Shown: piece by piece, positions 28,857 through 50,595 of the stretch
Layout: the number at the start of each line of letters is the position of its first letter
Numbering within the stretch: position 1 is the first letter of the stretch
Source: a plasmid
Direction: 5' to 3' (one strand)
Assembly (NCBI RefSeq): GCF_053078305.1
Contig: NZ_CP166875.1
DNA: 64,000 nucleotides
Program-made: the position numbers and the translations under genes
The notes under the pieces: generated by a model
Told to the model about the DNA's origin: nothing
What the model saw: the letters and a program-made list of their open reading frames with translations, nothing else
Databases searched by the model: none

Positions 28857-29015
28857 CTACTTACCGGATTCGTAAGCCATGAAAGCCGCCACCTCCCTGT
28901 ATCCGTCTCTGTAACGAATCTCGCACAGCGATTTTCGTGTCAGATAAGTAAATATCAACAGTGTGAGACACACAATCAACACACACCAGACAAGAGAGCT
29001 GCGTGGTAGTTTCAT
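28857..29015 (-). CDS. hok: Hok/Gef-family type I toxin (FlmA/Hok-like)
   Basis: 52 aa [52 protein letters not shown]; adjacent to psiA. Confidence 0.85.
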
Positions 29016-29289
29016 GGCCTTCTTCTCCTTGCGCAAAGCGCGGTAAGAGGCTATCCTGATGTTGTCAGACATATGGGATGCCTCGTGGGTTAATGAAAAA
29101 TTAACTACGGGGCTATCTTCTTTCTGCCACACAACACGGTAACAAACCACCTTCACGTCATGAGGCAGAAAGCCTCAAGCGCCGGGCACATCATAGCCCA
29201 TATACCTGCACGCTGACCACACTCACTTTTCCTGAAAATAACCCGCTCATTCAGGCTGTTTACGGGTAATCTGTGTGATTGTTGCCGCA

Positions 29290-35335: not shown

Positions 35336-35746
35336 GCACATTATATTCAGCGCCACATCCGGTAGCCTGCGATATAACACAGTTATCCTGTCAGTAAGAG
35401 CAGGTATGATGAATACACGGAGATTAAAAATATAATCTCCGTCACATGTTACCCCCGGAAACCGGTAACGCCGTCACGGGAAAGACGTGACAGAAAAAGC
35501 AGCCTCCGTTACTCCAGGTATCAGAAGGCTGAATAATGCATGAGACTTTCTTTCTTATGTGTCTGGTCAGGCTGGCTGACCAGCGTTTTTAGTAACACAT
35601 AGCCATATGTGTATTAAGCCACCTCATCTTATTTTGTTGAATTGATCACAATTCAACGGTTTATTTTTGGCGTGATGTGTGAGCCGTTATTCATCCCGGC
35701 ATGGAATTCATGCAATAACGAAAAGTAATCAGTGACGGAGAGTAAA

Positions 35747-36295: not shown

Positions 36296-36694
36296 ATGAA
36301 AGGTGAACAAATGAACTATCAGGCAGTATCAGAATTAATCACATCGTCTAATCATAATGTTCTTATTGTGGGGGACTCAGCTTCTGAAGTTGATAGCTTT
36401 TTAAATAAACTGAATATTACTGATTATAAGTATTATGATTTCAGCCAGATTTACAGTTGTTCTGACAGAACATTAAATGATTATGCGGTTATTTTTATCA
36501 GGGATGCACTGAACGCCAGTGAGCATATTATTATTTTTAATTGTACAGGATGGCCTGATTTGAATAATGAATCTGCCGTCATGCAGTTTGCCAGAGTGGC
36601 ACGAAAATCAGGAAAACAACTGATAGTCGCAGTAAGAGAACAGGATATGAAAAAAATGGAAGCAGAGTTTGGAAGGATCATAAAAATCCACTGA
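36296..36694 (+). CDS. Hypothetical AT-rich protein
   Basis: 132 aa ORF; no recognised domain. Confidence 0.35.
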   Translation: MKGEQMNYQAVSELITSSNHNVLIVGDSASEVDSFLNKLNITDYKYYDFSQIYSCSDRTLNDYAVIFIRDALNASEHIIIFNCTGWPDLNNESAVMQFARVARKSGKQLIVAVREQDMKKMEAEFGRIIKIH

Positions 36695-36973
36695 CGCCTT
36701 CGCGTTGCTCAGTTGTCCAACCCCGGGGACGGGAAAAAGCAAGTTTTCCCCGCCCCCGGCGTTTCTGTAGTGAAAAGCGGGAAATGGAGGGAATGGTCAG
36801 TAACAGGGAATGTGGTATTATCGCGGCGGGTGTCTGAGCCTTTCTGGTTCAGGCAAGACGCAGGTACTAGAAATGCGAAGACCCCACTTGTTAATCCATT
36901 AACTCGTGAGGCCTGCATGAAGTACTTGAACACTACTGATTGTAGCCTCTTCCTTGCAGAGAGGTCAAAGTTT

Positions 36974-37123
36974 ATGACGAAATATGCCCTTATCGGGTTG
37001 CTCGCCGTGTGCGCCACGGTGTTGTGTTTTTCACTGATATTCAGGGAACGGTTATGTGAGCTGAATATTCACAGGGGAAATACAGTGGTGCAGGTAACTC
37101 TGGCCTACGAAGCACGGAAGTAA
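36974..37123 (+). CDS. srnB: Hok/Gef-family type I toxin (SrnB/PndA-like)
   Basis: 49 aa MTKYALIGLLAVCATVLCFSLIFRERLCELNIHRGNTVVQVTLAYEARK; leader ORF starts at about 36917. Confidence 0.75.
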   Translation: MTKYALIGLLAVCATVLCFSLIFRERLCELNIHRGNTVVQVTLAYEARK

Positions 37124-37406
37124 GCTGCCGGGCGGGGACGGAAGTCCCCGCTTTCCGGAAGTGTGAGGTATTTCAGGGGCAGACACCCGACATGCCAGAA
37201 ACCGCCGGTCCCGCCCGGGGCCGGCACACAGGTTAAGGCATTTCCTGTTTTTCAGCCATTTCGCAACAAAAATCACATTAAACAACAGTAATCACCGTTG
37301 ATTTGTGCGCCAACACAGATCTTCGTCACAATTCTCAAGTCGCTGATTTCAAAAAACTGTAGTATCCTCTGCGAAACGATCCCTGTTTGAGAATTGAGGA
37401 GGCGAG

Positions 37407-37667
37407 ATGTCGCAGACAGAAAATGCAGTGACTTCCTCATTGAGTCAAAAGCGGTTTGTGCGCAGAGGTAAGCCTATGACTGACTCTGAGAAACAAATGG
37501 CCGCTGTTGCAAGAAAACGTCTTACACACAAAGAGATAAAAGTTTTTGTCAAAAATCCTCTGAAAGATCTCATGGTTGAGTACTGCGAGAGAGAGGGGAT
37601 AACACAGGCTCAGTTCGTTGAGAAAATCATCAAAGATGAACTGCAGAGACTGGATATACTAAAGTAA
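37407..37667 (+). CDS. copB: IncFII replication regulator CopB (RepA2)
   Basis: 86 aa with the recognised RepA2 sequence ([23 protein letters not shown]...). Confidence 0.85.
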
Positions 37668-37754
37668 AGACTTTACTTTGTGGCGTAGCATGCTAGATTA
37701 CTGATCGTTTAAGGAATTTTGTGGCTGGCCACGCCATAAGGTGGCAGGGAACTG

Positions 37755-37850
37755 GTTCTGATGTGGATGTACAGGAGCCAGAAAAGTGAAAACCCCGATA
37801 ATCTTCTTTAACTTTGGCGAGTGAGAAAGATTACCGGGGCCATCTAAAAA
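37755..37850 (-). ncRNA. copA: CopA-type antisense RNA (replication control), inferred
   Basis: Imperfect long stem-loop (ccccgataatctt...aagattaccgggg) in the repA leader between copB and tap; position as in IncFII replicons. Confidence 0.4.
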
Positions 37851-37890
37851 CCGTATAGCCAACAATTCAGCTATGCGGGGAGTATAGTTA

Positions 37891-37965
37891 TATGCCCGGA
37901 AAAGTTCAAGACTTCTTTCTGTGCTCGCTCCTTCTGCGCATTGTAAGTGCAGGATGGTGTGACTG
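37891..37965 (+). CDS. tap: RepA leader peptide Tap (RepA6)
   Basis: 24-codon [27 protein letters not shown] whose stop overlaps the repA start. Confidence 0.7.
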
Positions 37966-38816
37966 ATCTTCAACAAACGTATTACCGCCAGGTAAAGAAC
38001 CCGAATCCGGTGTTTACACCCCGTAAAGGTGCCGGAACGCTGAAGTTCTGCGAAAAACTGATGGAAAAGGCGGTGGGCTTCACCTCCCGTTTTGATTTCG
38101 CCATTCATGTGGCGCATGCCCGTTCGCGTGGTCTGCGTCGACGCATGCCACCGGTGCTGCGTCGACGGGCTATTGATGCGCTGCTGCAGGGGCTGTGTTT
38201 CCATTATGACCCGCTGGCCAACCGCGTCCAGTGTTCCATTACCACACTGGCCATTGAGTGCGGACTGGCGACAGAGTCCGGTGCAGGAAAACTCTCCATC
38301 ACCCGGGCCACCCGGGCCCTGACGTTCCTGTCAGAGCTGGGACTGATTACCTACCAGACGGAATATGATCCGCTTATCGGGTGCTACATTCCGACCGATA
38401 TCACGTTCACACCGGCGCTGTTTGCCGCCCTTGATGTGTCTGAGGATGCAGTGGCAGCTGCGCGCCGCAGCCGTGTGGTATGGGAAAACAGACAGCGCAA
38501 AAAGCAGGGGCTGGATACCCTGGGTATGGATGAGCTGATAGCGAAAGCCTGGCGTTTTGTCCGTGAGCGTTTCCGCAGTTACCAGACAGAGCTTAAGTCC
38601 CACGGCATGAAACGTGCCCGTGCGCGCCGCGATGCAGGCAGAACCCGCCAGGACATTGTCACCCTGGTGAAACGGCAGCTGACGCGTGAAATCGCGGAAG
38701 GGCGTTTCCGGGGAAGCCTGGAGGCCGTGAAGCGCGAAATCGACCGTCGTGTGAAGGAACGCATGATAATGTCGCGTAACAACAACTACACACGGCTGGC
38801 CACTGCCTCCCCCTGA
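37959..38816 (+). CDS. repA: IncFII replication initiator RepA1
   Basis: 285 aa from the start overlapping the tap stop; recognised RepA1 sequence. Confidence 0.9.
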
Positions 38817-38829
38817 GTTTTACCTCATC

Positions 38830-39250
38830 TGAATAATCCGGCCTGCGCCGGAGGCATCTGCACGCCTGAAGCCTGTCAGCGAACAAAAAAACAGCACCAC
38901 ATACAAAAAACAATCTCATCATCCCGCTTCTGGTGCATCCGGCCCCCCTGTTTTCGATACAAAACATGCCTCACTGACGGGGAATTTTGCTTATCCACAT
39001 TTAACTGCAAGGGACTTCCCCATAAAGTTACAACCGTTCATGTCATAAAGCGCCAGCCGCCAGCCTTACAGGGTGCAATGTATCTTTTAAACACCTGTTT
39101 ATATCTCCTTTAAACCACTTAACTACATTCATTTAAAAAGAAAACCTATTCACTGCCTGTCCTGTGGACAGACAGATATGCACCTCCCACCGCAAGCGGC
39201 GGGCCCCGACCGGAGCCACTTTAGTTACAACACTCAGATACAACCACCAG
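38830..39250. other. Vegetative replication origin region (oriR) with DnaA box
   Basis: DnaA box ttatccaca at about 38987, AT-rich stretch downstream of repA1. Confidence 0.55.
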
Positions 39251-39384
39251 AAAAACCCAAGTCCCGCGCAGAACTGAAACCACAAAGCCCCTCCTCATAA
39301 CTGAAAAGCGGCCCCGCCCCGGCCCAAAGGGCCGGAACAGAGTCGCTTTTAATTATGAATGTTGTAACTATACTCCATCATTGC

Positions 39385-39665
39385 TGTCAGTATTCTGGCT
39401 GGAAGTCCTCAGTACACGCTCGTAAGCGGCCCTCACGGCCCGCTAACGCGGAGATACGCCCCGACTTCGGGTAAACCCTCGTCGGGACCACTCCGACCGC
39501 GCACATAAGCTCTATCATAGCTGACAGCGGGTATGGCTTTGCAGGGTGGGGATGGGTAAGGTGAAATCTATCAATCAGTACCGGCTTACGCCGGGCTTCG
39601 GCGGTTTTACTCCGGTATCACATGTAACCACAGCGTGCCGCCTTACATGCGCTGACGCGCATAAA
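39385..39665 (+). repeat. Repeat family D copy 1 (about 280 bp, upstream of a toxin-antitoxin cassette)
   Basis: Near-identical to 41273-41548 and partially to 49862-49950; contains GC hairpins including a terminator-like cgccgggcttcggcggtttta. Confidence 0.6.
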
Positions 39666-39751
39666 CAACAAGTTGCTACATTAGCTTACAGGTTAATTCA
39701 CCTTGCATAAGATTAGCATATAGGTTAATGTTTATCGAAATGGGAGGTCAT

Positions 39752-40081
39752 ATGTTTAGCGTTGTTTATCACCCGGAAGCCAGGGAAGAAGCCACAGCAT
39801 TACCCATAAAAATCAGGGTGAAGTTTGACCGTCTCATCAGCAAACTGGAATATGACGCCCGATTACTGCGGGAACCGGATACAAAGCCCCTGGGGGATGG
39901 ACTTTTTGAGATCCGCACGATGGGGACGGACATAGCCAGAGGCATCTGGGTATACCACAAAGGCAATACCATCATCATGCTCCGGGTTTTCATCAAGAAG
40001 TCTCAGAAAACGCCAGCAAAAGAAATCGATCTCGCCAAAAAGCGGTTAGCGGAGGTACTTAATGAAACTGGTAAGCCATAA
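39752..40081 (+). CDS. higB: RelE/ParE-superfamily toxin, HigB-like
   Basis: Toxin-first arrangement with overlapping HTH antitoxin; RBS gggagg. Confidence 0.55.
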   Translation: MFSVVYHPEAREEATALPIKIRVKFDRLISKLEYDARLLREPDTKPLGDGLFEIRTMGTDIARGIWVYHKGNTIIMLRVFIKKSQKTPAKEIDLAKKRLAEVLNETGKP

Positions 40082-40343
40082 AGAACTGCATAACGAGTGG
40101 ATGCAGGACGACGAATATCGCGCTGCATGGCAGGAAGAAGAACGTAAGGAGAAACTCAGGGAGTTGCTTGCAGAATGGCGTAAGCATGACAATTTGACAA
40201 AAGCGCAGGTTGCTGAACGCATGGGGGTTACTCCTCCTGTTATTTCCCGCCTGGAAAACAACATCACTAAAGCCAGCATCGACACCCTGACTCGCTATGC
40301 CCATGCGTGCGGTATCAAAAAACCTGTTATTACGCTGTACTGA
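40062..40343 (+). CDS. higA: HTH (XRE-type) antitoxin, HigA-like
   Basis: HTH segment (LTKAQVAERMGVTPPVISRLENN); overlaps toxin stop. Confidence 0.55.
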   Translation: MKLVSHKELHNEWMQDDEYRAAWQEEERKEKLRELLAEWRKHDNLTKAQVAERMGVTPPVISRLENNITKASIDTLTRYAHACGIKKPVITLY

Positions 40344-40531
40344 ACTCTGCTCTATGGCTGCCAGTTCTGGAGAAATCAGTAACTAAATTTTAATTAGCTA
40401 CGTTATGGTAAATCTGCCTGATGTGTCGATTTCTCTGAAAGTAATTCGGCTTCTGTGGGCTGCGTTTGCCTTGTGCCACCTGAATGTAATCACTATGATT
40501 AAATATGATTAACAACTAATCGGATATACAA

Positions 40532-40810
40532 ATGAAAAACAATACCGCACAGGCAACAAAAGTAATTACCGCGCATGTGCCATTACCTATGGCTGATAAA
40601 GTCGACCAGATGGCCGCCAGACTGGAACGCTCCCGGGGCTGGGTTATCAAACAGGCACTTTCTGCATGGCTTGCCCAGGAGGAGGAGCGTAATCGCCTGA
40701 CGCTGGAAGCCCTGGACGATGTGATATCCGGACAGATTATCGACCATCAGGCTGTACAGGCCTGGGCAGACAGCCTCAGTACTGACAATCCGTTACCGGT
40801 TCCACGCTGA
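40532..40810 (+). CDS. Ribbon-helix-helix antitoxin (ParD/CopG-like)
   Basis: 92 aa; stop overlaps start of the downstream toxin. Confidence 0.55.
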   Translation: MKNNTAQATKVITAHVPLPMADKVDQMAARLERSRGWVIKQALSAWLAQEEERNRLTLEALDDVISGQIIDHQAVQAWADSLSTDNPLPVPR

Positions 40811-41085
40811 TGGAACTGAAGTGGACCAGTAAGGCGCTTTCTGATTTGGCGCGGTTATATGATTTTCTGGTGCTGGCCAGTAAACCTGCCGCCGCCAGAA
40901 TGGTACAGTCCCTGATACAGGCACCGGTCATTCTGTTAACTCATCCACGTATGGGAGAACAGTTGTTTCAGTTTGAACCCAGGGAGGTCAGACGGATTTT
41001 TGCTGGCGAGTACGAAATCCGTTACGAACTTAATGGGCTGCGTTTGGGAAACGTACAATATTGTACGGTTGCGCTATTGCGGTAG
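40810..41085 (+). CDS. ParE/RelE-family toxin
   Basis: 91 aa, coupled to the upstream RHH antitoxin. Confidence 0.55.
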   Translation: MELKWTSKALSDLARLYDFLVLASKPAAARMVQSLIQAPVILLTHPRMGEQLFQFEPREVRRIFAGEYEIRYELNGLRLGNVQYCTVALLR

Positions 41086-41272
41086 GGTGTACTCCAACGC
41101 TATACGGTATTTGGCAGACCTTTAGGGACATGAGATAACCTAAATGCAATAAGAGAAAAGCAATAACTTAAAGGCGATAGCTGATCACGATGAATCAATC
41201 AGTTACTTATCCGCATCGATTAAAAAATGCTCCTAACGTACAATAATTCCGTTTCCCAAACCGACCCCTCAG

Positions 41273-41548
41273 TGTTCTGGCTGGAAGTCCTCAGTACACG
41301 CTCGTAAGCGGCCCTGACGGCCCGCTAACGCGGAGATACGCCCCGACTTCGGGTAAACCCTCGTCGGGACCACTCCGACCGCGCACAGAAGCTCTCTCAT
41401 GGCTGAAAGCGGGTATGGCTTAACAGGGTGGGAATGGGATAGGCGAAATCTATCAATCAGTACCGGCTTACGCCGGGCTTCGGCGGTTTTACTCCGGTAT
41501 CACATGTAACCACAGCGTACCGCCTTCCATGCCGCTGGCGCGGCATAT
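41273..41548 (+). repeat. Repeat family D copy 2
   Basis: Near-identical to D1. Confidence 0.6.
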
Positions 41549-41600
41549 CATGGTGACGATATCTGAATCGTTATATACTGTGTATATACGTGGTAATGAC

Positions 41601-41700
41601 GAGGTGATAAATGGCACAGGTTAATATGAGTTTAAGAATCGACGCTGAACTGAAGGATGCTTTTATGGGGTCAGCCTGGAATTCGGAAAATAAACCACGT
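41601..41700 (+). pseudogene. RelB/DinJ-like antitoxin N-terminal fragment, truncated by a miniature element
   Basis: MAQVNMSLRIDAELKDAF then runs straight into the GGGG terminus of the Tn3-type inverted repeat. Confidence 0.5.
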
Positions 41701-41856
41701 TAAGACTATTTTTTAGCCAAATGACTGTCAGGAATCCGGACGGTCGGAACATTTCGTACAGCCTTTACGTTCAGTGAGTTAGCTGGCCTGGATGTAACCA
41801 CTCGTTCAACTCAATTCTCTTAGCGTGGGAAAATTTCCGTTTTCCAAGCGGACCCC
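41667..41856 (+). mobile_element. Tn3-derived miniature element (TIME-like, 190 bp)
   Basis: Left IR GGGGTCAGCCTGGAATTCGGAAAATAAACCACGTTAAG (41667-41704) and right IR, reverse complement GGGGTCCGCTTGGAAAACGGAAATTTTCCCACGCTAAG (41819-41856); no coding capacity. Confidence 0.65.
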
Positions 41857-41875
41857 TAGAAGAAGGGAAGCGATA

Positions 41876-42292
41876 TCAAGCCCAGGGATTAATAATTGAT
41901 ACTCCGGTTAATTCAAAATCACCAACATTTCTGGTTACAACCGTCATCCCATGTACCAGCGCCGTTGCTGCGATCAATGCGTCTCGTTCACTGCGCCTGT
42001 CGGGAACATGTAAACGAGAACAACGTAATGCAACCGCAGTATCTACAGGAAGTATCTTATCAGAAAACGCTGGTAACACATGCTGATCCATCCAAGAACG
42101 TAGCATAATCCCTTGTCGCATATCTCGACGTTCAACTTGTAATATTCCCTGTTCAAGTTCCATTATGGAAATAACAGAAATAAAGAAATCTGCCGCATCT
42201 GTATGCAATACCCATTTTGCAACATTATTATCTATACGTCCTGTCCGAGCCTTCCGTAGCTCAGAGATAACATTAGTATCAAGAATATACAC
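41876..42292 (-). CDS. vapC: PIN-domain toxin VapC
   Basis: 138 aa starting MYILDTNVISELRK; PIN acidic residues. Confidence 0.8.
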   Translation of the reverse strand: MYILDTNVISELRKARTGRIDNNVAKWVLHTDAADFFISVISIMELEQGILQVERRDMRQGIMLRSWMDQHVLPAFSDKILPVDTAVALRCSRLHVPDRRSERDALIAATALVHGMTVVTRNVGDFELTGVSIINPWA

Positions 42293-42546
42293 TATAAAAA
42301 CTCCGCAGGTTTTAAACTAACCGTAATACGAGGCGGTTCAAATTCAACTGCATCAGCATCGGGCATCGCCAGAATGTCAATGAGAGTTCGTCGTTGTTGC
42401 GTCAATTTTCGGTATTCTTCGATACTAAGAAGTACATGTGCGGTTTTACCCCGATCAGTAATAAATACTGGACCATAATTCGTGGCGCGTTTGGCTCGAG
42501 TTACATCTTGATTAAGTTCCCGACTGGATAGGGTTGTAATCTTCAT
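42292..42546 (-). CDS. vapB: Antitoxin VapB (Phd/YefM-type)
   Basis: Start refined to MKITTLSSREL; overlaps vapC start. Confidence 0.7.
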   Translation of the reverse strand: MKITTLSSRELNQDVTRAKRATNYGPVFITDRGKTAHVLLSIEEYRKLTQQRRTLIDILAMPDADAVEFEPPRITVSLKPAEFL

Positions 42547-42657
42547 GCTGTTGCCTTTTGATGTATATAGGTACGTTACTACATTGTAGGGCATGAAATA
42601 GTACAATGCAAGAAATGTACTTGATTAGGGGTAGTCTTCGCCGCTTGTTGCTGTCAG

Positions 42658-42692
42658 ATATTAATGCTAATGTATGCATACATTAGCATTAA
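42658..42692. promoter_or_regulatory. Perfect 34-bp palindrome attaatgctaatgtatgcatacattagcattaat, copy 1
   Basis: Directly visible; identical copy at 47242-47275. Confidence 0.6.
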
Positions 42693-42729
42693 TGAGGGAT
42701 GATATGTGAGAGACAAAACCAGGGAGGCC

Positions 42730-43068
42730 ATGCGGTTTTTTTTAGGCGGCAGGTGTTACACGGCTGAAAACCTTGAAAAGGATTATCTGGCTGAAGTTGC
42801 TAATTACAGTGACGACCGCTGGGAAGCACCCCAACGCGCCGCACGTCTGGCAGCTGCCGTAAAGCGTTACAAGACATCAGAAATGCTGCGCTTTATTTTT
42901 GCTACCACTGCCTACGATCCCGATCCAGATTTAACCCCGCTGACTGTGAGACGTTTGTGCAAGGCATTGTTCGGCAGAACAGGAAGCCAGTGGCTGGTTG
43001 TTGAAGTTTTTGGGGAGAAGGGGCGTCAGCACCGCAGCGCGGACAGCAATCCGGAGATGGTGGAAAAA
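42730..43068 (+). pseudogene. Hypothetical gene (about 160 aa when rejoined), 5' part, interrupted by Tn3-family copy 2
   Basis: ATG with RBS agggagg; frame continues across the transposon into 46969-47214. Confidence 0.5.
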
Positions 43069-43125
43069 GGGGGTTCGCGCCCATTTCCTCTAAAAGTCTC
43101 ACCTTGCTTAGGTAATTAATTGAAT

Positions 43126-43707
43126 TTATTTATAAAACGTTGCAATTTTAGCATCATTTTTTATTGTTCTTTTTAACCTGAAGTACGTCGATCGAGAGAT
43201 ACCTGTTTTTTCTGTCACACTGCCCAGAGATTCTCCCTGTGATATAAGCTCCAACGCTGTAGGCGTTCGTGGATGCTTCTTCCTGCCAAATTTTACGCCT
43301 GCGGCAAGTGCCGCTATTCTTCCGTCGTTTGTCCGCTCCAGAATACGCTCACGTTCCGCTTCAGCTACAGCAGCAAGGATTTGGATAACCATTTTGCCCA
43401 TTGTCCCTTCTGTACTGAGACCGTTCTCCAGGAACCGGATGGCGATCCCCTTTTTGTAACAGCTATCAACCACACGAATCATGTCAGCAGTGTTACGCCC
43501 CAGTCGGTCCATTTTTGTACAGATGATTACGTCGTCTTTCTCTGCACGGGCCAACAACCGCTGTAGTCCTTCCCGTTCATCAGTTGCGCCAGTCATCATA
43601 TCCGTAAAAATACGATCTTCCCGTACCCCGGCATTTTTTAGCTCCGAGATTTGATGTGTTAGCTTCTGATGACTGGTTGATACCCGTGCATACCCCAATA
43701 ACGCCAT
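43126..43707 (-). CDS. tnpR: Serine recombinase / resolvase (copy 2)
   Basis: Identical to 22636-23217. Confidence 0.85.
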   Translation of the reverse strand: MALLGYARVSTSHQKLTHQISELKNAGVREDRIFTDMMTGATDEREGLQRLLARAEKDDVIICTKMDRLGRNTADMIRVVDSCYKKGIAIRFLENGLSTEGTMGKMVIQILAAVAEAERERILERTNDGRIAALAAGVKFGRKKHPRTPTALELISQGESLGSVTEKTGISRSTYFRLKRTIKNDAKIATFYK

Positions 43708-43863
43708 TTTTAGTCTCACTTATCGTTTTTGACACTGCATGGTATCATAATGTACAAAATACGATTTTTGAAACCTGCTTTTATGCTGTTTTAGACAGGT
43801 ATCAGATATCTTAATATTTGATACTAGCCATATTTAACAAATATTTAGCATTTTGGTAAATGT

Positions 43864-46800
43864 ATGCAGAAGTACAAGAAAAGAATTAGTATATTAACAA
43901 AAAGTGAAATAAATGAATTATATCAAGTCCCCTCTTTTAATCCTGTTGAAAGGGATGAGTTTTTTTCGCTGGATATCAGCCTTAAAAGAGAAATTGATAA
44001 AATAATAAATATAGAAAGCAGGGTGTATCTGATATTAATAACAGGGTATTTCAGATATAAACCTGTGATTCCTGAATTTACATTAAAAGACGTAAAAAGG
44101 GATGTGAAATATATTATCCAGACATATTATAAAAACGAAAGTACTAATCTCAATTTAAACATACCTAAAAGTACAAAGTACCGCCTTGTTAAACGAATGC
44201 TTTCTACTCTAGGATTTGAACAACTCACCCCATCTATAAAAAATGAGTTAAGTGAACGTCTGAATGATGTTGCTACTATATGTATGGAACCAAAATATAT
44301 TTTTGATGAATTACTTGCTTTTTTAGGACAGCGGCGTATAGCTCTTCCTGGATACAGTACTGTCCAGAACCTCGTTTCAGATGCTTTAAACTTTGAAAGG
44401 AAAAGGACAATTAATATTTTGTCAAAGAGAATTTATCCTGCCACTGCACAAAAGATTACATCCATCATCCATGATGATGGAATATTAAATTCCATCAGGG
44501 GATATAATTATAGCACGAGAGACTTCTCAGCATCAGAAATAGAAAATGAATTAAGAACTCACAATGTGATAAGTAGTATTTACTATGAAATAAAAGATAT
44601 AATTAATTCATTAGGTATATCCCAGGGAAACATGGAGTACTATGCAACTATCGTAAAACACAGTACAACATTCAGACTTAAGCGACACCCTAAATGGCAA
44701 GGAATACTTTATTTGTGCTGCTACTTGTACTTCAGATACAGAGAGATAAATGATAAAATAATCACAGCCTTCAGATATTTAGTAAAAAAACATAAAGACG
44801 CTTCAGTTTTGTTTGCAAAAGCTCGGGCAACAGAGGAAATAGATCTAATAAATAAAAAGCTTAAGTTTGCGAGTAAAATATTTAACTTCTTCGTTGATAG
44901 TAACATTGAAGACAGCATCCCTTTTGGATATGTTCGTGAAAAGGTTTTTTCACTTATATCGAAAGATGATATGCATCTTGTGAGTGAATTTTTTGACAAA
45001 AATAAAATCGATGTAATTGAATATCAATGGCAGTATATTGACAGCCATCACCTTAAGATCGCCAATTCAATCCGAAAGCTTTTTCTGGCTATAGATATAG
45101 TATATGACAACGAGAAGTCTGTTATTGGCCAGCAAATTACTGCTGCCAAGGATGATCTCAGAGGAAAAGGAAAGCTGGATGCTAAGGATCTGAGGGTAAT
45201 TCATCCATCCGAGAAAAATTACATTGTAAAAGAAGGAGAAATTAACACTCAACGATTCGAATTTCATATGTACAGCAGGGTATCTAACCATCTGGAAAAC
45301 GGTGTCTTTTATGCTGCGGAGAGTGAACAAAACAAGAGACTGGAAGATGATCTCATAGAACGAAGTTACTGGCATAAGAATAAATCGATTTTGATAGAGA
45401 AAACAGGCCTTGAACGACTTATCACACCAATAACGCAGACTCTTAATGAGCTGGAGAATACCTTTAGCGATAAACTGGCTCGTATAACCATTGGAATAAA
45501 CTCAGATGCTAATGAGTTTGTGAAAAAACAACCACACTCCAACAGATTACAGTGGAGTCTGGCCAGTAAAAAATGGAAGACCAGCATCGATAATCCGATT
45601 TACAATCAGATAAAAAATATCGGAATAGTTGACGTAATGAAGTATGTAAACAATGAGACGAATTTTTTGTCTGTGTTTAATGCCATATCATCCAGGAAAA
45701 ATAATCTTGAAGCTGACTATAATGACCTTCTTGCCTGTATATTTGGTAATGGCGCAAATTATGGTGTTCACAGAATGGCATCTGCATCAGACCGTAGTAT
45801 TGGAATACTACGTGATGTGAATGACAAATTCATTCGTCCAGAAACAACAGGAATGGCCAACACAGTAATATCTGATGCAATTGCAAATCTTTCTGTATAT
45901 AAATACTGGACGATAAATGAAGATTCTCCATTTGGAAGTGTTGATGGGCAGAAGCACACTTGCAGAATAAATACATTTAAAGCCCGTTATTCTGCCAAGT
46001 ATTTCAGAAAGGGGAAAGGGGTTTCTGCGATGACACTGGTATCTAATCATGTGCCATTATCAACTGTGGTAATTTCTCCAAATGAATATGAAGGTCATTT
46101 TGCATTTGACTTGTTATATAACAACACCAGTGAAATACAACCAAAGTCATTAGCGACTGACAATCATGGTATAAACAACGTTAATTTTGCGATTCTTGAC
46201 ATTTTTGGCTATCAGTTTTCACCACGTTATGCAAAATTCAAGAAAATATTTAATGAATTATTTGATGTTATACTGGAGAGTGATAAACTCATTATAAAAC
46301 TTAAAAAACAATTTAACTTTAAGCTCATTGAACATGAATGGGAAAACATCCAACATATTATTTGTTCTTTAAGCAGAAAAACAACCATTCAAAGTACGGT
46401 TGTTAAGAAGTTATCTAATACAAAGCGTAGCAACAAGACATTAGCAGCACTTCGGGAGTATGACCGAGTTATAAAATGCATATATGTCCTGGATTATGCT
46501 GACAATAAAACCTTAAGGCAATTTGTGCAACAAGCACTGAACAGAGGTGAAGCTTATCATCAACTAAGAAGAGCAATAGCATCAGTAAATGGAAATCAAT
46601 TTCGCGGTGGTAATGACTACCAAATAGATCAATGGAACGACTGTGCGAGGTTAATAGCTAATTGTGTAATCTATTATAATTCAGCAATATTATCCAGGCT
46701 GGTCGAGAAATTTGAAAAAGAAAATAATAAAAAAGCGATAGATGTTCTGGCTAACTTATCCCCAGTAGCATGGAGACACATTCTCCTTGGAGGGAATTAT

Positions 46801-46902
46801 TCTTTTGAAGATCAAGTTGCGATCACAAATTTGGACAGTCTTTTGGAGGGAGTAGACCCACTAAGTGATATCGGAGATATTGAGTCCGAATATGACGGTT
46901 AA
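43864..46902 (+). CDS. tnpA: Tn3-family DDE transposase (copy 2)
   Basis: Identical to 23374-26412. Confidence 0.8.
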   Translation: MQKYKKRISILTKSEINELYQVPSFNPVERDEFFSLDISLKREIDKIINIESRVYLILITGYFRYKPVIPEFTLKDVKRDVKYIIQTYYKNESTNLNLNIPKSTKYRLVKRMLSTLGFEQLTPSIKNELSERLNDVATICMEPKYIFDELLAFLGQRRIALPGYSTVQNLVSDALNFERKRTINILSKRIYPATAQKITSIIHDDGILNSIRGYNYSTRDFSASEIENELRTHNVISSIYYEIKDIINSLGISQGNMEYYATIVKHSTTFRLKRHPKWQGILYLCCYLYFRYREINDKIITAFRYLVKKHKDASVLFAKARATEEIDLINKKLKFASKIFNFFVDSNIEDSIPFGYVREKVFSLISKDDMHLVSEFFDKNKIDVIEYQWQYIDSHHLKIANSIRKLFLAIDIVYDNEKSVIGQQITAAKDDLRGKGKLDAKDLRVIHPSEKNYIVKEGEINTQRFEFHMYSRVSNHLENGVFYAAESEQNKRLEDDLIERSYWHKNKSILIEKTGLERLITPITQTLNELENTFSDKLARITIGINSDANEFVKKQPHSNRLQWSLASKKWKTSIDNPIYNQIKNIGIVDVMKYVNNETNFLSVFNAISSRKNNLEADYNDLLACIFGNGANYGVHRMASASDRSIGILRDVNDKFIRPETTGMANTVISDAIANLSVYKYWTINEDSPFGSVDGQKHTCRINTFKARYSAKYFRKGKGVSAMTLVSNHVPLSTVVISPNEYEGHFAFDLLYNNTSEIQPKSLATDNHGINNVNFAILDIFGYQFSPRYAKFKKIFNELFDVILESDKLIIKLKKQFNFKLIEHEWENIQHIICSLSRKTTIQSTVVKKLSNTKRSNKTLAALREYDRVIKCIYVLDYADNKTLRQFVQQALNRGEAYHQLRRAIASVNGNQFRGGNDYQIDQWNDCARLIANCVIYYNSAILSRLVEKFEKENNKKAIDVLANLSPVAWRHILLGGNYSFEDQVAITNLDSLLEGVDPLSDIGDIESEYDG

Positions 46903-46968
46903 CAACATGATAAATAATGGTTTTTATGCTAAGAGTGAGACTTTTGGAGGAAATGGGCGCAGAACCCC

Positions 46969-47214
46969 ACTGTGAGACGTTTGTGCAAGGCATTGTTCGG
47001 CAGAACCGGAAGCCAGTGGCTGGTTGTTGAAGTTTTTGGGGAGAAGGGGCGTCAGCACCGCAGCGCGGACAGCAATCCGGAGATGGTGGAAAAAATGGCT
47101 GCCAGATATCGTCATGCCGCCGAACTACACTGGTCCGCAACGCTGGCAGAAATTGAACGGGTAAAGCGGCTTTATCAGACGAAAATTAAGAAATCCAAAA
47201 AAGAAGTGGGTTGA
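46969..47214 (+). pseudogene. 3' part of the interrupted hypothetical gene
   Basis: Repeats residues LTVRRLCKALF...EMVEK of the 5' part, then continues to a stop. Confidence 0.5.
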
Positions 47215-47241
47215 CTGCCATTGTTATTCTTTTCCTTCATC

Positions 47242-47275
47242 ATTAATGCTAATGTATGCATACATTAGCATTAAT
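47242..47275. promoter_or_regulatory. Perfect 34-bp palindrome, copy 2
   Basis: Identical to copy 1. Confidence 0.6.
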
Positions 47276-47299
47276 GATGGTGCGTTGAACGTACAATAA

Positions 47300-47420
47300 G
47301 GGGTCCGCTTGGAATTCGGAAATTTTCCCACGCTAAGTGAATTGAGTTGAACGAGTGGTTACATCCAGGCCAGCTAACTCACTGAACGTAAAGACTGTAC
47401 GAAATGTTCCGACCGTCCGA
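47300..47420 (+). repeat. Solo Tn3-type terminus: inverted copy of the right 120 bp of the miniature element
   Basis: Begins GGGGTCCGCTTGGAATTCGGAAATTTTCCCACGCTAAG; reverse complement of 41739-41856; no partner IR found to its right. Confidence 0.6.
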
Positions 47421-47577
47421 TAACCATTTGGCTTACTTCCGTACATTTCCTTGCGTAGATGTACAGAATTGTACGTTTTCGTACGGTTGGCCCTCAAACC
47501 CCATCCTTGAGTAGTGGCATAAGAAAACGGCTCCCTGTTGTGGAAGCCGTTATCAGTTGCACGATTAGCATTGGAGT

Positions 47578-48003
47578 TTAAAGGATACCTTTCTGAGAAA
47601 ATGTGATCCGGGTTGCTTCATTTAAATCCATATATTTTAGGGTGTCAGGAGATGCCCAGACTATATCCTGAAACTCCTCATTAAATGTAACTGTACGGTT
47701 TGTACTGATACAGTCGAATATTAGGTAAATCATGTAAATGTCCTCGTGGGTACCATCCGGGTACGTTTTTGTACGGATATCATCACGAAAGGCCCAGGGT
47801 TTTACGTCAGTGATATGCAGTTCTTTTCCCAGTTCTTCCTTTATTTCACGCCTCAATGCTGTTTCCATAGTCTCTCCGGGTTCCATTCCTCCACCGGGCA
47901 GTGCCCATTGGCCCGGGAATACTCCGCGATCAGAGGCCATTTTACAAAGTAGAAACTCACCTTCATTTTGTATCACAGGGCACACTATTACTCTCTGGCG
48001 CAT
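47578..48003 (-). CDS. Nudix hydrolase
   Basis: Nudix box [23 protein letters not shown]; low-GC operon. Confidence 0.8.
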
Positions 48004-48004
48004 T

Positions 48005-48739
48005 TTATGTCCTCAACATCATGGCTTTTTGGATAACCTTATCAGAAAAATCATCAATGTCATCCGGGTGAGCACATACCATAATCCGCTCACGAAGGTG
48101 TAACGGAAGATTATCAGTAAAATGTTGATATTCCGCATGCCATCCTGTGATCCATTTTATCTTCATTTCCTCATCTGGAAATTCTTCAGGCCGTACACCA
48201 TGAATTTCATCATCATTGAGATGCATGAGTGAATGTGCGATGGGATAATTAATGAATGCTATAATGTCTGGCTCTGTAAGTAATTCATTTATTCTACTCC
48301 AGAGCACCATGTATGCATCATATTGTGCTTTATTTATATATTCGGACTTCAGCATGAAGTTGATAAAAATATAATCCTCAATATGGGATCTCTCCATAAT
48401 AAGGTTAAACCCTTTATCCAGCCAAGATTTTATCAGTAATGCCCGTTGTATCATAAAATTAAGCTGGATTAGATAACCGTAGTTACTGGTATCGTCAAAA
48501 AGGTAAGGAAGGAGAGTGTGGTGGACACTTTTTTCATCTATCGCGACAGTGTCTGGATCTACCTTAAATAACTCCTTTGACATGCGTCTCAGAAGAGTAC
48601 TTTTACCTACACCGGAATTACCCGACAGACATATATACAGAGGATTTCGAGTTTTATTCTTCTCTTTTTTATCTGCTGACCAAGGATCCATATACAAGTA
48701 ATTATATCTCATACTGTAAACTCCATTTTGTCCAACCAA
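48005..48739 (-). CDS. P-loop nucleoside/nucleotide kinase (dNK/TMK-like)
   Basis: Walker [10 protein letters not shown] in an about 240 aa protein; overlaps both neighbours; start uncertain. Confidence 0.6.
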
Positions 48740-49575
48740 AAGCGGTTGTTCTTACATTTTTGCATGATTTCATTATTTCCGAAAATTGCACTGATTATAT
48801 GATCTTGTGAATCTGTCAGCATATTTCCCAACAGAGTATAGTTTTCTCCATCAGGGATAATAATGTCAAAATTGGGTTCCATAACAACATTGGCTTTGTC
48901 CCGTTCTTCGAAAGTTGCCCAACTAATGGGCATGTTAGGGTGTTGTTTTTTTAGCATTACCATTTTCTCTTTAAATATATCCGTATTGATTTCCAGTTTA
49001 TCTCTTTTTTCTTTTCCGACTCCTAGAGGACAGAACTGGTAAAATCGCCAAGCTTGGATCTTATAGGGCAGAGAATCAACCCAGCAAACAATATCACTGA
49101 GATGATTAATGTTAGACTGAGATACGACGGTCGTGAGTTTTATATTAATTCGATTATTATTTTGGGGTAACCATGTTAATATATTTTTGATAACCCTGTG
49201 TTGGTTACTCATTTTATCACTGCGAATTTCTGAATTGACAAGACTGTCAATTCCATCAATTGGTATTCCTACCCAGTCTAACACCGGATTTAACCGAGCA
49301 TGATCCATAATAAATCGATGCCCGACCGTGGAGAGATATGTCATAAAACCCAGTTGCTTAGCGTATTCAATCAGATCAATGAAATCACTCCGGGATGTAG
49401 GTTCCCCTCCGGTAAAACCGATACGACGGAATCCCATTTTATACATCCGCTCAATTACATTACGAGCACTAGCAAGAGAAGAGTCCTGAATTCCAGGTGT
49501 ACGAAAACACTGATCACATCCTAGGTTACAATGTGAAGTTATTCTGAAATCTAAAAGAAGGGTGCTAATATCCAT
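48709..49575 (-). CDS. Radical SAM enzyme, viperin-like (prokaryotic viperin candidate)
   Basis: CxxxCxxC (SHCNLGCDQCF), GGEP motif (IGFTGGEPT), and C-terminal WRFYQFCPLG region resembling viperin RWKVFQCLLIEG; 288 aa. Confidence 0.6.
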   Translation of the reverse strand: MDISTLLLDFRITSHCNLGCDQCFRTPGIQDSSLASARNVIERMYKMGFRRIGFTGGEPTSRSDFIDLIEYAKQLGFMTYLSTVGHRFIMDHARLNPVLDWVGIPIDGIDSLVNSEIRSDKMSNQHRVIKNILTWLPQNNNRINIKLTTVVSQSNINHLSDIVCWVDSLPYKIQAWRFYQFCPLGVGKEKRDKLEINTDIFKEKMVMLKKQHPNMPISWATFEERDKANVVMEPNFDIIIPDGENYTLLGNMLTDSQDHIISAIFGNNEIMQKCKNNRFWLDKMEFTV

Positions 49576-49861
49576 AACAAGTCCTCTGACTATGATACAT
49601 CAATAACCATTAAAACATAATGGTTATTGCAGACCATGACAAAGCGCAACCTTCGGCTTACCAGGGATATAATATCTGCCAGTAATCAGAGCAGTGGGTT
49701 GCGCAAGGAACTCATGAATGATGAGTTCCGGTAATCGCATTACTGGAAGCCCATGATCGGAGGGACGCTATCAGTCACACCAGTGAAAATTGTGCACAGA
49801 AGCATTTTCATCACTGACAGGCCGTATGCCTCACAAGACGGGAGATAACTGGAGAATATTT

Positions 49862-49950
49862 AGTTCTTCTACCGGCTTACGCCGATTTTACTCCTGTGTT
49901 ATATGTAACCACTGTGTGCCACCTTCCATGCGCTGGTGCGGCATCAGAGT
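49862..49950 (+). repeat. Repeat family D copy 3 (3' portion only)
   Basis: Matches the 3' 85 bp of D1/D2; followed by a TA cassette. Confidence 0.5.
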
Positions 49951-50059: not shown

Positions 50060-50311
50060 ATGCCTAACATCATTCTGTCTGACATCAGTGCAAGTGTCAG
50101 TGAACTGAAAAAAAATCCGATGGCGACAGTCGGTGCTGGTGATGGTTATCCGGTCGCCATTCTGAATCGCAATCAGCCGGCATTCTACTGTGTTCCTGCT
50201 GAACTGTATGAAAGGATGCTTGATGCTCTGGATGACCAGGAGCTGGTGAAACTGGTTACTGAACGTAGCAGTCAACCTCTGCATGATGTTGACCTGGACA
50301 GTTATTCATGA
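50060..50311 (+). CDS. Phd/YefM-family antitoxin
   Basis: 83 aa; stop overlaps start of the downstream toxin. Confidence 0.65.
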   Translation: MPNIILSDISASVSELKKNPMATVGAGDGYPVAILNRNQPAFYCVPAELYERMLDALDDQELVKLVTERSSQPLHDVDLDSYS

Positions 50312-50595
50312 CTTATACGATAAAATTCAGGGATGATGCGCTTAAAGAATGGCTGAAACTGGATAAGACCATTCAACAACAGTTTGTGAAAAAACTAAAA
50401 AAATGTAGCAAAAATCCTCATATACTGTCTGCAAAACTACGTGGGCTAAAGGACTGCTACAAAATTAAACTTCGTGCATCGGGATTTCGTCTGGTTTATC
50501 AGGTGATTGATGATATGTTAATTATTGCGGTTGTTGCGGTAGGTAAACGAGAACGTAGTAACGTTTATTATCTCGCCAGTGAGAGAATGAGATAG
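50308..50595 (+). CDS. RelE/ParE-family toxin
   Basis: 95 aa; coupled to the YefM-like antitoxin. Confidence 0.65.
   Translation: MTYTIKFRDDALKEWLKLDKTIQQQFVKKLKKCSKNPHILSAKLRGLKDCYKIKLRASGFRLVYQVIDDMLIIAVVAVGKRERSNVYYLASERMR

Follow-up and report, generated by a model that had tools for sequence, protein, structure and literature searches.

A stretch of 64,000 nucleotides of a plasmid (NCBI RefSeq assembly GCF_053078305.1, contig NZ_CP166875.1), referred to below as the window, contains a hairpin-rich repeat of about 280 bp, family D, with three copies located upstream of different toxin–antitoxin (TA) modules. What is this repeat, and why does it precede TA genes that are unrelated to each other? 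In the original prediction it was considered to be a portable leader, a small RNA gene or a recombination site that travels with TA cassettes. The analysis described here indicates, with a probability of about 0.85, that the repeat is the already-known repA4/G-site region of IncFII-family (R1/R100/NR1-type) replicons and carries a signal for leading-strand priming. This element is usually unannotated in databases, and it looked novel because of this under-annotation.

Repeat copies and the IncFII replicon

The near-identical repeat is real: a repeat search showed that copies 1 and 2 form a 264-nt direct repeat (39387–39650 and 41269–41532) with 95% identity. When the flanks were included in the alignment, the homology covered 39385–39665 for copy 1 and 41269–41548 for copy 2. 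Both are complete elements; copy 1 lies behind an origin of replication and copy 2 is detached from any origin (its CAG triplet, which is discussed below, is at 41424–41426). The minus strand, as the presumed template of the leading strand, is assumed to be the functional strand of copy 1, and copies 2 and 3 are assigned to the same strand. The third copy also exists, but the bounds given for it in the original prediction were wrong. Its 3′ part of ~90 nt (49862–49950) is ~83% identical to the other copies, and a profile built from 30 homologues extended the match to 49792–49946 (E = 6e-10). Copy 3 therefore reaches further in the 5′ direction (49792–49950) and is a decayed relic: the whole 5′ domain is gone, the first hairpin of the 3′ domain has a 12-nt deletion, and the otherwise invariant CAG is changed to CAA. 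The terminal hairpin is retained at 49928–49944. No further match to the 27-nt core of the element was found in the window at ≤3 mismatches (chance expectation 0), and the repeat search did not find an inverted partner copy of copies 1–3 in the window.

Upstream of copy 1, the window contains the antisense RNA CopA of an IncFII replicon (37784–37874, minus strand; Rfam RF00042, 98.9 bits) and the gene of the IncFII-family replication initiator, repA (37947–38816, plus strand; 289 aa). The latter is named ‘incFII family plasmid replication initiator RepA’ by the Prokaryotic Genome Annotation Pipeline (PGAP) on 99.5%-identical DNA. Next to repA, the sequence was read as oriR with an approximate extent of 38991–39175 (plus strand), consisting of the DnaA box TTATCCACA (38991–38999) and a subsequent AT-rich region. 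A pattern search revealed an inverted pair of Ter (Tus-binding) cores, namely GAGTGTTGTAACTA at 39222–39235 on the minus strand and GAATGTTGTAACTA at 39357–39370 on the plus strand, the second of which is conserved in the alignment of homologues. Copy 1 begins 15 nt past the second Ter core and 569 nt past the repA stop codon. The order of CopA, repA, DnaA box/oriR and the inverted Ter pair is the layout of the R1/R100 basic replicon. Copy 1 occupies the IncFII position, past oriR and the inverted Ter sites; copies 2 and 3 are detached and do not.

A comparison with R100 (NC_002134.1, 90238–90520) showed 92.6–92.9% identity to copies 1 and 2 over 280 nt, and the identity between R100 and the window was 93.9% for oriR together with the element. 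In R100, the element is followed by tir and pemI/pemK. In the pEC958 study, the origin of pEC958/R100 was placed between repA1 and repA4, the repA4 region was described as holding ter sites and as important for stability, and tir and pemIK were found downstream of repA4 (PMC4398462). In addition, transposon mutagenesis of pEC958 scored repA4 as required for maintenance (PMC4398462). PGAP puts a ‘replication-associated protein RepA4’ on the matching DNA in some records, and many matching records have no annotation at the element or a ‘frameshifted hypothetical’ one. Copy 1 has the same sequence (93% to R100) and the same place as the G site/repA4 region of R1/R100, with the same order of repA, oriR, Ter pair, element and stability genes, and no essential difference was found. 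The differences concern copy 2, which is an orphan without an adjoining origin, copy 3, which is a decayed fragment, and the TA genes, which are HigBA-like plus CopG/ParE, YacA(B) or YefM/RelE here and not tir-PemIK.

The element was found in 7182 places in 6349 records belonging to 4075 of 5426 complete E. coli genomes, and 7128 of these 7182 places were on plasmids. It is also present in at least 5000 PLSDB plasmids. At the megablast level, the element was contiguous with the 3′ end of repA and oriR in 4145 of 6485 records. Sixteen places were sampled, and a RepA gene was located upstream in 13 of them; among the places that were non-contiguous at the megablast level, five were behind a diverged RepA of 342–343 aa and three were orphans. 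A TA module was located within ~1.2 kb downstream in 11 of the 16 places, and insertion sequence (IS) or transposon (Tn) elements in the other five.

A RepA-based scan across genera, with one genome per species (Yersinia pestis, Pantoea, Erwinia, Mixta, Hafnia, Serratia, Citrobacter, Klebsiella and others), returned 31 loci, 28 of which had enough downstream DNA. The element was present in all 28, on the same strand and at the same distance from repA. According to the clustering of open reading frames (ORFs), those located past the element in these distant replicons are mostly not TAs: a ParA-like ORF was found in three loci (confirmed by NCBIfam in one), a 311-aa unknown protein in four and various other ORFs elsewhere, and only an R100-like contig has pemIK. 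Among 10 representative downstream ORFs of distant replicons searched against NCBIfam, ParA alone was recognised and no TA was found. Since the linkage to repA is complete (28/28) and the genes beyond the element are mostly non-TA, the constant partner of the element is the replicon, and the TA module is a lineage-specific neighbour.

Some minor features of these replicons were also observed. In IncFII-like replicons of Erwinia, Hafnia, Mixta and Enterobacter (loci L027, L035, L041 and L048), a conserved ORF of 280–311 aa without an NCBIfam match is located directly past the element, in the interval ~55–990 nt after it. Many distant replicons have an extra hairpin, ACTGGCTGCGCACTGCTCGCCAGT, past the terminal hairpin (alignment A3, columns ~365–420), which is missing from the E. 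coli IncFII plasmids. In addition, IncFII repA contigs with 92–93% or 78% protein identity are filed as a Lachnospiraceae metagenome-assembled genome (MAG), Streptomyces morookaense and a Candidatus Nanosynbacter MAG (L021, L023 and L025). In all likelihood, plasmid DNA of enterobacteria got into these public assemblies by contamination or mis-binning.

Structure of the element and the predicted priming site

The anatomy of the element was derived from the alignment of the 30 homologous sequences. The most conserved part is the 5′ domain (39410–39510, minus strand), which contains the invariant CTAACGCGGAGATAC and ACTCCG and folds as a three-way junction with two hairpins and a closing stem. 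Compensatory changes were found in at least eight pairs of this domain, for example 39483/39463 (GC 23, AT 4) and 39476/39471 (CG 21, GC 5). Two pairs, 39502/39416 and 39487/39459, can form only as G.T pairs of the minus strand, since the plus strand would have A opposite C; this mildly favours folding of the minus strand. The two conserved structured domains are separated by a variable stretch (39511–39535), after which comes the invariant CAG at 39542–39544.

The 3′ domain (39546–39662, minus strand) consists of a purine-rich tract and hairpins, and three of its stems show compensatory changes. It contains the hairpin ACCGGC/GCCGGT and a long-range stem that covaries (GGCGCC/GGCGCC, GGTGCC/GGCACC, GGCGG/CCGCC). 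The terminal hairpin ATGCGC-TGAC-GCGCAT (39647–39662; 6–7 bp) is the right border of conservation; its variants are ATGCCGC/GCGGCAT, ATGACGC/GCGTCAT, GTGCCGC/GCGGCAC and ATGCGCC/GGCGCAT, and within the 64 kb this motif occurs only at the three copies. The homology of E. coli plasmids ends just past the terminal hairpin, where the own promoter region of each TA type begins. The terminator-like stem with a T-run noticed in the original prediction corresponds to CGCCGGGCTTCGGCG followed by GTTTT at 39589–39603 and 41471–41485, and the T-run is lost in distant homologues. Folding of single sequences resulted in z-scores of only −2.0 and −2.3. The search against Rfam 15 found no family on the element, either at the gathering score for the whole window or at E ≤ 1 for 39200–41700, and the promoter search did not predict a sigma-70-like promoter inside the copies. 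As had been claimed, the element has no ORF: none of ≥60 aa was found on the plus strand within 38967–39728. The window does not keep the R100-type RepA4 frame intact, and the 30 homologues have no conserved frame in common. The element is non-coding, structured, cis-acting DNA.

Replication of R1 and R100 is unidirectional, away from repA, and the leading strand is primed at the G site by DnaG primase alone. The G site of R1/R100 (NR1) is a primase-dependent signal close to the 3′ end of repA4, at ~400 bp beyond oriR. It was reportedly studied by Masai and Arai (1989, J Biol Chem), Bernander, Krabbe and Nordstrom (1992, EMBO J), Jiang et al. (1993, J Bacteriol) and Tanaka et al. (1994, J Bacteriol); the last of these is said to distinguish conserved blocks A, B and C and two required domains with a dispensable middle between them. 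The similarity between the G sites of plasmids and the complementary-strand origin of phage G4 is confined to the surroundings of the primer start.

The only invariant triplet in the middle region of the element is CAG (39542–39544), or CTG on the minus strand, which was found in 30 of 30 sequences. The minus strand at 39546–39534 reads CCCTGCAAAGCCA and the corresponding G4 sequence reads ACTGCAAAGCCA. The 11-nt identity CTGCAAAGCCA spans both the invariant CTG and the annotated primer start of G4 (NC_001420.2), where the primer begins opposite the T of CTG. In a shuffle control, a word of at least 10 nt was shared with G4 anywhere in 7% of shuffles. The minus-strand CTG (39544–39542) is located 368 bp past the right end of oriR and ~22 nt before the stop codon of the R100-type RepA4 ORF. 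Judging from this motif, the primer is predicted to start opposite T39543 (T41425 in copy 2) and to grow rightwards. Rightward synthesis on a minus-strand template would be the geometry needed if the leading strand is to follow DnaB as it leaves oriR.

The following sequence of events can be proposed. RepA and DnaA would open oriR, and DnaB would then move rightwards on the plus strand. The displaced minus strand would become single-stranded and coated with single-stranded DNA-binding protein, and the conserved hairpins would fold. DnaG primase alone would recognise the site and begin the primer at the minus-strand 5′-CTG-3′ (39544–39542), and rightward extension of this primer would give the leading strand. 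The sequences show the position and conservation of the element, its linkage to repA/oriR, the covariation of its hairpins, the lack of a conserved ORF and the match to the G4 start motif; primase dependence, the exact start nucleotide and the strand usage are inferred or taken from the literature.

The origin of phage G4 (oric), the prototype of a primase-only signal, also has GC-rich hairpins located 5′ of the start on the template. However, only the 11-mer at the start site is similar; it was found by reading both sequences. In addition, the G4 hairpin adjoins the start directly, whereas in the element a tract of ~35 nt that is purine-rich on the plus strand lies between them. The element further differs from G4 in the structured, highly conserved domain that it has on the opposite side of the start. 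An 8-mer, GGAGATAC, is shared with stem-loop II of G4, but it is on the plus strand and was judged to be a chance match (about one such 8-mer is expected by our own estimate).

Several points weigh against the assignment of the element as a G site. No blastn-level similarity to G4 was found in the search of 50,697 phage records, which gave one chance 23-nt match elsewhere, and the profile hidden Markov model (HMM) of the 30 homologues had no significant match to the F RepFIA/ssiA region or to G4. The most conserved part, the 5′ domain, sits 3′ of the predicted start on the template, and a simple analogy with G4 leaves its role unexplained; it may be the second primase-contact domain reportedly described by Tanaka et al. 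(1994). The E. coli clade also contains a second candidate start, TACTG at 39580–39576. This was the start proposed first, and it was demoted because its CTG is not conserved in distant replicons.

A similar short motif was observed in the F plasmid (NC_002483.1, ~48015–48090), where CAGTAG, that is CTACTG on the other strand, is located at the foot of a GC-rich hairpin. CTACTG is the start hexamer of G4, and in F it lies upstream of the oriV-2 DnaA boxes; a k-mer comparison revealed short shared words only. The ssiA site is said to lie upstream of these DnaA boxes (PMC4398462). The F site fits a G4-type site, though without profile-level similarity to the IncFII element.

Toxin–antitoxin slot and alternative explanations

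Each of the three copies does precede different type II TA genes, according to the PGAP names in near-identical records. Copy 1 is followed by a HigBA-like module (39752–40343, plus strand), in which a RelE/ParE-family toxin comes first and a helix-turn-helix antitoxin second (ORFs and PGAP on 99.5%-identical DNA), and then by a CopG(RHH)/ParE-type module (40526–41085, plus strand; PGAP on the same DNA). Copy 2 is followed by a 5′ stump of yacA (41610–41668, plus strand), the gene of a RelB-type antitoxin, of which ~20 codons are left before the cut made by a Tn3-family element. A Phd/YefM-RelE module (50060–50595, plus strand) was found after copy 3 using the ORFs and PGAP annotation of near-identical records.

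Junction-specific queries found tir+pemIK in 1959 records, yacAB in 1329, copG/parE of the pO157 type in 1190, yefM/relE in 576 and higBA in 44. Together, these five junction types occur just downstream in ~5100 of the 6349 E. coli records with the element (~80%). The association with unrelated type II TA modules is therefore genuine in the E. coli clade, but it is positional, and the element travels with repA/oriR. The element precedes different TAs because IncF replicons of the E. coli clade keep a TA module in the slot just beyond it. The content of this slot differs between lineages, with parD/pem in R1/R100. Transposases occur downstream only now and then, where they interrupt the slot, and orphan fragments consisting of the element and a TA module without repA, including copies 2 and 3, also exist.

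As in the window, a type II TA is located directly past the origin-proximal element in R1 (parD, kis-kid) and R100 (pemIK). Across E. coli plasmids, the window included, the slot is taken by at least five unrelated TA families. The parD locus of R1 was described as ‘close to the basic replicon’, and its toxin Kid was found to be functionally coupled to replication control (PMC4344636). It is possible, although we regard it as unlikely, that the place past the terminal hairpin is a selected, lineage-variable ‘stability slot’ into which at least five unrelated type II TA families were exchanged in the E. coli clade, in which TA placement beside the leading-strand start is functional, and for which the element serves as a homologous anchor. 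If so, TA dosage or expression would be coupled to the initiation of replication, which would generalise the Kid–CopB replication-rescue circuit of R1 to other TAs. The element would then be an anchor by which TA and defence cargo moves between IncF plasmids, and the orphan relics would be footprints of exchange.

In pO157-type plasmids (L017, 2280–2345), the sequence right after the G-site border reads …TTTGCCTTGT…GTAATCACTATGATTAAA. In the window, compared over 39666–40520, this stretch was found only at ~40476–40513, just before copG/parE. Because the promoter-proximal sequence of pO157 is displaced in this way, the HigBA cassette looks like an insertion of ~810 bp made exactly at the right border of the element.

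The proposal that the repeat is a portable leader, small RNA gene or regulatory element of TA cassettes, transcribed and controlling or accompanying the downstream operon, is highly improbable. It would agree with the five TA junction types just past the element, the orphan fragments and the terminator-like hairpin with a T-run on the plus strand. Nevertheless, 13 of the 16 sampled places and all 28 cross-genus loci have the element tied to repA/oriR, and the genes downstream of it in distant replicons are mostly non-TA, which is close to the situation that the original prediction itself regarded as incompatible with it. Moreover, the homology ends at the terminal hairpin and the TA types have promoter regions of their own, the commonest type has tir between the element and pemIK, and the T-run is unconserved in distant homologues. 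The copies have no Rfam match even at E ≤ 1 and no sigma-70-like promoter inside. A dedicated site for site-specific recombination (attC- or res-like), used for the insertion or exchange of TA cassettes, is very improbable too. The sharp right border shared after a covarying hairpin, with five cargo types behind it, and the seeming insertion of HigBA between this border and the promoter region that precedes CopG/ParE in pO157 speak for such a site. However, the element has no recombinase as a regular partner, its terminal hairpin motif does not occur at the far ends of the cassettes and is limited to the three copies in the 64 kb, and the conserved sequence continues past the hairpin in distant replicons. 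The border can be explained as the end of a functional element, as expected from homologous recombination and purifying selection. The element is not an IS or transposon terminus either: it has a fixed context behind repA and no inverted partner copy.

The least probable explanation is that repA4 encodes a protein that stabilises the plasmid. Some R100-like records carry a PGAP annotation for a ‘replication-associated protein RepA4’ of 128 aa, and pEC958 was destabilised by transposon insertions in repA4 (PMC4398462). Against a coding function, the frame is interrupted by stop codons and frameshifts in the window and none is conserved among the 30 homologues, indels of 1 nt are located in hairpin loops, and the conservation follows base-pairing and not codons; many records have either no annotation or a ‘frameshifted hypothetical’ one at this place. 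A signal acting after conjugation on the transferred strand, as a complementary-strand priming site or an Frpo-like promoter of single-stranded DNA (ssDNA) in the recipient, is compatible with a G site but appears improbable. The tra genes and repA have the same orientation, and by the polarity of F-type transfer the minus strand would be the transferred one; moreover, hairpin elements of ssDNA are used in this way in leading regions (PMC12672017). Like the Frpo/ssi promoters of the F and ColIb-P9 leading regions, the element is structured, non-coding, repeated, strand-specific and located upstream of small accessory genes. However, it adjoins oriR and lies outside the leading region, IncFII-like replicons conserve it irrespective of transfer genes, and it has several short hairpins instead of a single long Frpo hairpin with −35/−10 boxes (PMC12672017). 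Promoter-like hexamers were not found inside the element. Frpo is used by RNA polymerase and drives the downstream genes, which the element apparently does not, and no sequence relation between them was seen.

With the repA4/G-site region as the preferred explanation, a ‘structured repeat upstream of unrelated TA cassettes’ is corrected to a classical replicon component that is usually unannotated, with nothing or a spurious small ORF listed at its place in most records. Its recognition aids the annotation of IncF plasmids, explains why TA modules cluster at one spot and makes the remains of replicons visible in mosaic plasmids; in this one, the right ends of at least three replicons were revealed. 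The new point is modest and quantitative, namely that in ~80% of E. coli records a single conserved anchor has one of at least five alternative TA modules behind it. These counts are of modest use as a picture of how modules are exchanged where the IncFII replicon ends, and the orphan relics of anchor and TA mark past exchanges.

Mosaic origin of the three copies

The region 36500–41036 is 99.5% identical to plasmids of Shiga toxin-producing E. coli (STEC) that carry copy 1 alone. Position 41036, where the match to the reference plasmids stops, falls within the 3′ end of the gene for the parE-like toxin. The region of copy 2 is 96.3% identical to a p573-3-type replicon (L004, 1643–2043) up to 41668; this replicon encodes a 343-aa RepA and yacAB. 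In pCT282_2, YefM/RelE and DUF2251 directly follow an intact set of repA, oriR and element, which matches the arrangement after copy 3. In the window, copy 3 is preceded by a viperin-like cluster instead of repA-oriR, as in pFHI_NMBU_11_02. The plasmid is thus a mosaic: copy 1 marks the end of a working IncFII replicon, and copies 2 and 3 are relics of two others, which were brought in or cut by recombination and by the insertion of a Tn3-family element. Copy 2 could still be able to prime because G sites act autonomously on ssDNA; copy 3 is probably unable to do so.

The DNA between the end of the STEC-like region and copy 2 (41036–41268) is a filler of ~230 bp. It contains a perfect palindrome, CGTACAATATTGTACG, at 41052–41067, flanked by the inverted 12-mers GTTTGGGAAACG (41043–41054) and CGTTTCCCAAAC (41250–41261). 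The first 53 nt of the filler match the DNA upstream of a resolvase-type recombinase gene in pFHI_NMBU_11_02, and a res-like site is one candidate identity for the filler, a small non-autonomous element another.

The Tn3-family element (41669–47419) contains an ORF for a 1012-aa transposase (43864–46902). It has inverted segments of 121 nt (41737–41857 and 47299–47419; 97%) and an unusually long direct repeat of 126 nt (42943–43068 and 46969–47094; 99%). It truncates yacA at 41668 and lies between two stretches that adjoin each other in p573-3.

Directly upstream of copy 3, a cluster of three genes was found on the minus strand (47578–49575), with the same arrangement in pFHI_NMBU_11_02. The first gene encodes a 288-aa radical SAM protein, which matched the PADLOC pVip model ‘viperins associated with kinases’ (E = 1.6e-30). 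The other two encode a deoxynucleoside kinase and a NudI-like Nudix protein (PADLOC PDC-S07, E = 5e-17). This cluster looks like a plasmid-borne prokaryotic viperin defence cluster.

In addition, the Rfam search revealed two hok/sok-type loci (sok, 87 and 95 bits) and a match to the antisense RNA AS-pc02; these matches are at 29013–29184 (minus strand), 36828–36984 (plus strand) and 35428–35570 (minus strand). With them, the window contains at least six stability or TA modules.

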